Origin: Squalus acanthias
Lineage: Eukaryota
Length of the DNA: 64,000 nucleotides
Assembly (NCBI GenBank): GCA_030390025.1
Contig: CM059441.1
Span: 66,898,001-66,962,000, forward strand
Direction: 5' to 3'
Position numbers and translations under genes: made by a program. Under the pieces are notes generated by a model. It ran no database searches and had not been told where the DNA came from. It saw nothing but the letters and a program-made list of their open reading frames with translations. Of the stretch, positions 14,401-17,400 are shown one piece after another. Numbering within the stretch: position 1 is the stretch's first letter; each line of letters opens with the position of its first letter.

Positions 14401-17400
14401 CACACTTGTGCAATATCCAATTTAAATTTACAAGTCCCTGAAGGTTCAGTCCTCGGGTGACACAGCACTGACGCATTCCGTAGGACTTGGCACAGGGAGG
14501 AGAAAGCATTGCTCATTTGCTGCCCGTATCCTAAGTCATGTTCACCCAGCACCCCTGTGCTCGCTGATCTATATTGGCTCCCAGTTAAGCAATGCCTCCA
14601 TTTTAAAATCCCTCCATGGCCTCACCCCCTCCCTATCACCAGAGCCTCCTCCAACCCTCCAAGATCTTTGCGTCCTCCAATTCTGGCCTGTTGAGAATCC
14701 CCGATTTTAGTTGCTCCACCACTGCTTTCAGTTGCCTAGGCCCCAAGTTCTGGAATTCCCTCCCTAAACCTCTCCGCCTCTCTTTCCTCCTTTAAGGCGC
14801 TCCTTAAAACCTACCTCTTTGATCAATCTGTCCTAATATCTAACGTGGCTCAGTGTCAAATTTTGTTCGATTACGCGCCTGTGAAACACCTTGGGATGTT
14901 TTACTACGTTAAATGCGCTATATAAATGCAAGTTGTTGTTGTTGTTGCGTTTCCCTTCCTCAATGAAACTCTAGTGGCAGACACTGAGCAAAGGCTGGAT
15001 TGCTGCAGGCAGGGAGGAAGGGAACTCAGGGGCTGAGTGGCCCTGGTTATTCCAGTACAGCTCAGAGCAGCACTGCGAGAGGCCTGGGAGCTTTCCATTA
15101 ACAAGCACCTTTCAATTTCAACCAACACCATCTAAAATACATCTTTTAATTGCTGCTCATTGGTACAAATCAATGTTTCAATTAAAAATTTCCCCACCTT
15201 ATCGCACAAACTGCAGTACGATTTTGGCTAATTGTACTTGTTTCTAATTATCTAGCAGGCTGTTCATAACCCTATCAATGCTGCATGGTAGCTGTTTGGA
15301 GCAAACAGGATTGCTGCAAAACCTATAAAATTTGCCCAGAGAATGGGGGCGAGGAAGGGAAGAGGGTACCAGAGAATCCACGTGCCAATCCACAAAAGAG
15401 GTAGGAACAGGAGGCGGCCATTCAGCCCCTCGAGCCTCTTCCGCCATTCAGTTAGATCATGGCTAATCTGTATCTTAACTCCATCTGCCCGCCTTGGTCC
15501 CATAACCCTTAATATTCTTATTAAAAGGGACCGAAAAATTAAAATCTCCTTTATTTCAGAGTTCAAAAAGGAACGGAATGAGTCAGCCTGAACTTTACTG
15601 GACTTGTATTTGTGCAGCTGTACTACTGGGGTGGAATAGGGAGAAAAAGTTCAAAGAAGCACTAAATTGTATTGCATAGTAGAGAATAGCTTTTAAGTTG
15701 ATTGATGTCACTCTACAAACAGTTATAGCAGAAATATTCCACATCTTTAGTATCAGAGACTCTACTAAAATTCTCACCGGCCAACCTGAATGATTGCACA
15801 TTATCTCACGGTGCCAGAGTTATTGCTCGGAGATACTGGAGATGAGCTACAGAAATCCAGTGGGTTTTGGTAACCAGGAACATTTCATTGTAACACACAG
15901 TCATTAAGTGATAAATCACTGTTCGCTTGTTGTGTATGGTTCTATCTCTGGTCCCTTGGTGGAACAGTCTGCCCATAAGTGCTAAACAGGGCTAAAGAAC
16001 ATCTCTCTCTGCAATGAATAGCTGCACTGTATCTCATCACATCCATCACTCCTACCCATTAAGGCAATAATGAGCAACACAGTGTTCACTTTAGTTTCTG
16101 ATGTGCTTAATATGCACACAGTCACTTCATTATTGACATGAGAGCTGCTGTTTTTTGGCAGCGGTATGTCTTAATAAAAAAAAAAATCAGTGCTTTGTGG
16201 TAAGATGAAACACATTAGTTAACTGTTGAGTCAGAGGTTGGAGCCAGGGCTGTATCTCCTTATAGGAATGCCTGCACCTTTCAAATGGTCACCAGTGATT
16301 CACATTACTTCAGATTGGCTCAATTGCCTCCGGCTCAGAAGGCGGTGGGTTCGAGCCCCACTCCATGTCTTGAGCACATAATCTAGGAAGGAGTGCTGCA
16401 TTATTGGATGAGCCGTCAAAGAGGTTGGTCTTGACTGCCTGCTCAGGTGGATATTAAAAGGTCCCATGGCACTATTCAGGAGTGAGAGGTCGCACAACAC
16501 CAGGTTACAGTCCCAACAGTTTTATTTGAAATCACAAGCTTTCGGAGCTATCGATTGCCCCTTCCTCAGGTGACTTCACCTGAGGAAGGGGCAATCGATA
16601 GCTCCGAAAGCTTGTGATTTCAAATAAAACTGTTGGACTATAACCTGGTGTTGTGCGACCTCTCAATTTTGTCCACCCCAGTCCAACACCGGCATCTCCG
16701 CATCATGACTATTCAGGAGAGCAGGGAGTTCTGCTGTATCTCATCTCACCACATTCATTGGTGTCCTGGCCAACAATCCTCCCTCAACTAACACTGCCAA
16801 AACTAGATATTTCATCTCCTGGCTGTTGGTGGGTCTCACTGTGCACAAAATGGCTGCCACATTCACTTACATTAGGTGTCTGCACTTCAAAGCAATTCAC
16901 TGTGTGTGGAGTGCTTTGGGACATTTCTGCAAGAACTGATGAGGTGCTTTATAAATTCAAGTTTTTCTTACTGTAGGATCTCAGTAGGGATGTAGTCCAA
17001 CAACCTTGACAGCAGCAAGTTGTGCTCCTGCCAGCAGTGGGCTCTTCCTGCCCACCCCTTGCTACATGTCATTACACTCAGTGATCTTTTGCCCACGTTT
17101 GCTCGATTTCATCGGAAAAAGGCTCGGGCTGAATCTTCAGCTAGGCAAGGATTCAACTGACTACTGTAATGCGAGAGGTTGGTTGTCGGGTTTTCTTACG
17201 CAAGTTATTCTAGGAGAGCAATCCCAGCGAGGTTACTGGAAACGAGGAGGCCAGAACTCTGCCCAGTGACTACGAACAGGTGGAATTTCACTATATGGCC
17301 GCTGCGTCATGTCGGAACCTCAAAGCCCTGACTGAGGTGGGGGAGCGCTCATGATTTCAGCGTTTCAGATGCGACGTTAAACCGAGGCCCCGTCTGCCCT

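Follow-up and report, generated by a model that had tools for sequence, protein, structure and literature searches.

EN+ insertions of Penelope-like elements (PLEs) have been described as units in which an inverted, 5'-truncated copy lies head to head with the direct one and a tail of 30-40 bp extends one end as far as the ORF start (Craig et al. 2021, PMC8557442), and as inverted pLTRs with small palindromes at their junctions and, in rotifer examples, TSDs of 8-10 bp (Arkhipova et al. 2013, PMC3846280). The same layout is also given in PMC8969392, and the way in which PLEs produce their inverted repeats is still termed undefined in the cited part of PMC8557442. Metazoan PLEs moreover carry minimal hammerhead ribozymes, which have a type I core, an extra nucleotide before stem II, a G10.1-C11.1 pair, a 4-5-bp helix I, a palindromic 15.2-16.2 and no loop 3; pairs of such motifs on opposite strands, 100-700 bp apart, have been reported (Cervera and De la Pena 2014, PMC4209133). 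For PAc, a Poseidon PLE of Anolis carolinensis, both nicked strands were cut and extended in vitro, the tail corresponded to the distance between two RT start sites, and the template RNA was uncleaved at the hammerhead (Frangieh et al. 2024, PMC11167929). Animal non-LTR retrozymes are PLE-related, short and non-coding, with a type I hammerhead; in the sections cited they consist of head-to-tail units of 150-450 bp with mostly canonical active hammerheads and circular RNAs (PMC7229834; bioRxiv 10.64898/2026.07.22.740005).

Here we describe a short insert within a 64,000-nucleotide stretch of Squalus acanthias DNA, the whole of which is referred to as the window. It is very probably a dead, stump-sized PLE-end insertion, probably a fold-back made during insertion, whose two hammerheads are predicted to be silent. 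Like the EN+ PLE insertions of PMC3846280 and PMC8557442, it has a head-to-head inverted 5'-truncated copy, a tail at one end that likely reaches the ORF start, a TSD around the whole unit and a small junction palindrome. Unlike the insertions published there, it is confined to the last 90-130 bp of the element, without an ORF body; its tail measures 42 bp against the published 30-40, and its TSD 12 bp against 8-10. The layout is therefore already published for PLEs; the insert adds a reduced example, and retrozyme or MITE status is not supported.

A young insertion in a SINE of a CaMKII gene

Sequence analysis and self-BLAST placed the insert at 16483-16707 (225 bp), between two copies of a 12-bp TSD, ACTATTCAGGAG, that are 100% identical (16471-16482 and 16708-16719, + strand). 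It consists of a left arm of 91 bp (16483-16573), a 2-nt spacer (16574-16575) and a right arm of 90 bp (16576-16665), 183 bp in total, followed by an unpaired 42-bp tail (16666-16707, + strand) at the right end only, with no counterpart at the left. Aligned with each other, the arms show a single substitution and a single 1-nt indel; both differences sit in the left arm, and at these positions the right arm agrees with L002, one of the metagenome loci described below. Arm comparison suggests that the left arm is an inverted, tail-less, 5'-truncated PLE-end copy on the - strand, and, together with homology to the metagenome loci, that the right arm is a direct 5'-truncated PLE-end (pLTR) copy on the + strand. 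The spacer marks the centre of the fold-back and, judging from contig flanks and L002, forms part of the right arm's native sense flank. Among the five inverted-repeat pairs listed for the 64-kb window this is the sole long, near-perfect one, and self-BLAST found no second copy of the insert within the window.

Both flanks of the insert belong to one + strand SINE (16326-16969, the bounds being the reach of BLAST matches to paralogues), which we take to resemble DeuSINE/SacSINE1, and the equivalent of the 12-mer is present once in all four paralogous SINE copies aligned. Species were compared with the contigs of 4 runs out of 24 listed, including organisms A, B and C. In each of B (record 9) and C (record 16), one contig at single-copy depth carries an empty site, in which 16100-16458 is followed by 11 letters and 16708-16864, with one 12-mer; the flanks of B differ from the window at 20 of 780 letters. 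In organism A (X5, which may be the assembly's own sample), both junctions between unique flank and element are spanned by contigs. The TSD was thus generated at insertion, its left copy corresponding to the single copy at the orthologous empty site. The insert is a single young insertion, absent from both related species compared, and, as a presence/absence marker, separates organism A, in which X5 or X1-X4 may be the source of the assembly, from B and C. The sequence-only reading had claimed a 225-bp insert with a 12-bp TSD inside a SINE and an almost perfect 183-bp inverted repeat; both were confirmed, the first by paralogous SINEs as well as orthologous empty sites.

CaMKII exons run along the - strand from about 62.3 kb to 5.4 kb of the window, with the CaMKII beta chain as best PDB match (E 5.7e-16) and gamma narrowly behind (1.1e-15). 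The insert lies between the exon-like matches at 40359 and 10644, in the - strand interval 10645-40320 between the nearest recognised CaMKII (camk2b-like) exons, an interval that may contain unrecognised linker exons; the - strand is therefore the pre-mRNA strand. The location in a host intron, and the naming of the - strand as that of the camk2b pre-mRNA, agree with this result, beta being the best match by a small margin.

The window also holds LINE reverse-transcriptase remnants, presumably CR1-like, at 1207-2790 (- strand), 12343-13775 and 21729-22944; the last two are 89% identical, inverted and about 8 kb apart, and they flank the insert. Tandem arrays occur at 26290-27776 (period about 68 bp from self-BLAST offsets) and 44366-44624, with long spurious open frames.

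Hammerhead motifs and relatives of the insert

A minimal-hammerhead descriptor matched the window exactly twice, at 16580 on the + strand and at 16569 on the - strand, while 40 shuffled windows yielded one match in total. The + strand motif (16576-16617 by descriptor and folding) comprises the core at 16580-16586, an extra A, stem II at 16588-16592/16601-16605, GAAA at 16606-16609 and GCUU; that of the pre-mRNA strand spans 16527-16578 (same evidence), its core starting at 16569. Cleavage is predicted at 16613/16614 on the + strand and at 16536/16535 on the - strand. The features of PLE minimal hammerheads were found here, i.e., the core, the extra nucleotide 9/10.1, G10.1-C11.1, a palindromic helix III and a helix I of 4-5 bp, in likeness to the metazoan motifs of PMC4209133 in each of the traits listed above. 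Differences from the examples cited there are a stem II of 5 bp against 7-8 in Schistosoma, and the packing of both motifs into one perfect hairpin with only about 10 nt between them; because the two motifs lie on opposite strands, no cis dimer is possible.

Stem I is 4 bp on the + strand and 9 bp, in context, on the - strand. Loose contig ends in B and C and one joint in A reveal ..CTTCAC as the native flank upstream of the core, which gives a stem I of 4-5 bp, so the + arm represents the native context and the long - strand stem depends on the fold-back point, its outer part coming from the fold-back junction. Hence the hammerhead motif proposed on each strand was recovered, as was the - strand cleavage position; of the 8-bp stem I proposed for the pre-mRNA strand, the long stem stands, but it is 9 bp in context and junction-dependent, the native length being 4-5 bp. 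An Infernal-type hammerhead check, also suggested from the sequence, turned out negative: Rfam gave 11 matches in 14000-19000 at E<=10, none to a hammerhead model, and those to mir-1597, mir-1460 and MIR6154 were under the gathering score and reflect the hairpin. A loose CTGANGA..GAAA pattern was not enriched in the window (10 matches; 8 of 100 shuffles as high).

Searching with a hammerhead pattern matched three metagenome loci (L001, L002 and L003) and nothing in viral and prokaryote genome contigs; exact 23-24-nt arm patterns had no match in viral and metagenome contigs. Upstream of its repeat, L003 carries a frame (Atlas 0.97) with the CX3CxxC and GIY-YIG motifs described in PMC8557442, an endonuclease frame that neither Pfam nor NCBIfam recognised. 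L001 and L003 share 677 bp at 99.6% identity, and in L001 the repeat is faced head to head by an RT fragment matching Pfam RVT_1 (E 1.5e-5, short of the curated cut-off); NCBIfam toxin-subunit matches to this fragment (E 0.03-0.11, far under cut-off) and PDB beta-secretase matches were taken as chance. L002 holds the C-terminus of an endonuclease (E 3.9e-8), so that the hammerhead lies downstream of a GIY-YIG endonuclease in two of the three loci (L002 and L003). The core and stem II were fixed by the search pattern, and their conservation in these loci is therefore circular; outside the pattern, L002 aligned to the window's arm and tail with a score of 52 (0 of 2000 shuffles as high), and downstream similarity was weak in L003 (28 of 2000) and L001 (104 of 2000). 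Stem I is 5 bp in all three loci. In L002 one of its A-U pairs is cleanly replaced by U-A. Stem II has G-U/A-U. The pair test, on five rows of which about three are independent and with stem II pattern-fixed, did not reach significance (equalled in 43 of 500 shuffles). The tail of the insert ends in ATG (16705-16707), and at the equivalent place in L002 an ATG begins an open frame; judged from L002, translation of the parent ORF likely started at this terminal ATG. At about 500-1065 of L002, the PLE-like fragment joins bacterial-looking sequence including a deoxyhypusine synthase frame; this low-coverage marine metagenome contig is probably a chimeric assembly.

The three loci are distant relatives of the insert, from metagenomes. 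Through them, the arms are likely the pLTR of an element with RT and GIY-YIG endonuclease, and the parent was probably Neptune/Nematis-like; the linker of those clades, CX2-5CxxC ahead of a C-terminal GIY-YIG, is present in the relative L003. The Penelope derivation put forward earlier, with a minimal hammerhead and short palindromic helix III, is thus supported by both the layout and the loci. Compared with PAc, the insert's family similarly has two common 3' ends one tail-length apart and a template that was apparently uncleaved at the hammerhead; it differs in that the likely ATG is at the end of the tail, whereas the PAc ORF starts at stem II (PMC11167929), and in that its nearest loci bear the Neptune/Nematis-type linker.

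Elsewhere in the window, a second repeat is present at 24311-24527 (- strand) and 48889-49106 (+ strand), the copies being 80% identical with a hammerhead-like CTGACGA..GAAA/CAAA motif; neither passed the minimal-hammerhead descriptor, and they probably derive from another PLE family, as decayed ends. A degenerate GIY-YIG-like frame at 4351-4670 (+ strand; Atlas 0.93-0.94, no Pfam match) is likely a decayed PLE endonuclease.

Folding of the insert gave a hairpin with a z-score of -25.1 (0 of 200 shuffles equally stable), and forcing the hammerhead fold was calculated to cost 74 kcal/mol on either strand. Whichever strand is transcribed, the complementary arm precedes the ribozyme in the RNA; for the isolated minus-strand arm, formation of both ribozyme stems, I and II, is computed at P about 0.99. 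The long hairpin is therefore predicted to mask both hammerheads, in line with the earlier proposal that a ~90-bp hairpin competes with, and probably masks, the ribozyme; the Dicer/ADAR substrate also proposed there is a potential one.

Family ends, fold-back points and the origin of the arms

In X5, summed family depth peaked at close to 235,000 times that of single-copy sequence. For the loop-II variant at 16590 the corresponding factor was about 42,000 in A, 96 in B and 21 in C. As contig depth does not measure copy number, the excess is read only as a rough sign of a recent burst biased to the lineage of organism A. X9, a run guessed to be RNA, also contains family sequence, in which strand and locus are not distinguishable; the classes listed for it include no A>G, which is uninformative as to editing. 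Many contigs stop at 16706/16707, the common 3' end of the family, with unrelated flanks (61 and 52 in X5 among the ends listed, agreement about 0.39), which together with the homology to L002 delimits the tail. Summed depth, 4.58M at 16657, is moreover down to 1.84M at 16667, where the left end has its mirror position; subfamily divergence may contribute to this drop. Among the ends listed, 24 further X5 contigs stop at 16711 rather than at 16706/16707, hinting that the element's own continuation perhaps shares the first four letters of the right TSD copy (16708-16711); this would represent a 4-nt template-target microhomology, with a true TSD of 8-12 bp.

Left-arm-to-right-arm joins made up 11 of the 15 joints listed (of 86), each at a different place, and the remaining four were SINE-to-SINE; some listed joints stem from diverged subfamilies. 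One joint, 16548 to 16601 (4 contigs in X5 and 2 in X8), folds back exactly at the stem II hairpin, suggesting ribozyme stems as preferred inversion points.

In the version of the PLE-end insertion that we favour, with a confidence about evenly poised, the insertion was primed twice. The parent endonuclease would nick both strands 12 nt apart, and each 3'-OH would prime reverse transcription on uncleaved PLE RNA, one cDNA starting at the outer site (tail end, 16707) and the other at the inner site (mirror of 16665). Both cDNAs would stop just upstream of the hammerhead and then join head to head; in the host intron, the complementary arm, transcribed first, would sequester the ribozyme. Since the arms extend about 40 nt beyond the predicted cleavage site, self-cleavage did not set the boundaries and the template was uncleaved. 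The data on two start sites come from a Poseidon element, and the parent of the insert was probably Neptune/Nematis-like.

A variant compatible with the same PLE identity, and the main rival, less likely but fitting the same data, is that a single tail-primed cDNA of the same parent snapped back upstream of the core, copied itself and was resolved at the tail boundary by endonuclease or repair. Near-identical arms around a 2-nt spacer fit such a course, for which self-priming has been inferred from palindromes at inverted junctions (PMC3846280) and the tail ascribed to endonuclease resolution (PMC8557442). It would also account for the stem II-centred joint, which among the joints listed is the one within the element with most contigs and has 3-4 letters between its halves; however, stem II-centred joints are also expected from the annealing of two cDNAs, and with the flank of the relatives (..CCACTTCAC) the centre gives an overlap of 1 nt only. 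Under snap-back, a further step must be assumed for the copy to stop at the tail boundary; extension of both nicked strands from two start sites, by contrast, is what was seen in vitro (PMC11167929).

Other explanations take the palindrome itself as the unit. That a PLE acting in trans re-inserts transcripts of the whole of it, as a non-autonomous hairpin family of its own with an inherited centre and perhaps a selected 9-bp stem I, is improbable: centres differ among copies in the joints listed, the window has no second copy, the ribozyme is predicted to be masked in the full transcript, and the published PLE layout explains the insert without a special family. A short successful master could nevertheless underlie the depth of the loop-II variant in A, the minus-strand arm alone is computed to fold both ribozyme stems, and non-autonomous PLE derivatives exist (PMC8557442; bioRxiv 2026.07.22.740005). 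The retrozyme- or MITE-like non-autonomous element envisaged by the sequence-only reading does not agree with a head-to-head arrangement, an inverted repeat that stops 42 bp short of one end and variable centres. A non-LTR retrozyme was rejected in that it requires head-to-tail units on the same strand, while the motifs here are on opposite strands, head to head, and of the minimal type, predicted to be masked, rather than canonical and active (PMC7229834; bioRxiv 10.64898/2026.07.22.740005). A MITE of a DNA transposon, bearing its motif by coincidence, would be short and non-coding with a long inverted repeat and a TSD, and TIRs alone may constitute MITEs (PMC8969392); it is scarcely credible here, as the inverted repeat is not terminal on the right, arm and tail are homologous to PLE-like loci, centres vary, and many copies stop at the tail. 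MITE termini of a DDE transposase were likewise rejected, the only homologues found in metagenome, viral and prokaryote contigs being PLE-like. The intronic position and the 90-bp duplex that would form in the pre-mRNA might also point to a hairpin or ribozyme co-opted for camk2b regulation through cleavage, editing or small RNAs. This is very unlikely for an insertion that is young and missing from both related species compared and whose ribozyme is predicted to be masked; in the sources cited, moreover, single minimal hammerheads did not cleave in vitro (PMC4209133) and the PAc hammerhead depended on the element's protein (PMC11167929). No host function is implied.

Meaning for the lineage and for Penelope-like elements

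The literature consulted gave no account of the insert's family or of twin priming in PLEs, and Repbase/Dfam, subscription papers or supplements may well contain one. As a single locus, a young and probably inert transposon stump carries little weight. Taken as a population, on the other hand, such minimal insertions, bounded by family termini at both ends, flanked by a TSD and backed by a verified empty site, are clean test substrates for double priming versus snap-back. It is conceivable, though we hold it only tentatively, that the lineage recently received perfect fold-back PLE stumps by the tens of thousands, with the two RT start sites recorded in their outer ends. If so, these stumps would document, in nature, how a dimeric PLE enzyme inserts by double priming, which could settle the origin of inverted pLTRs, and they would also supply introns of this species with much double-stranded RNA specific to it.
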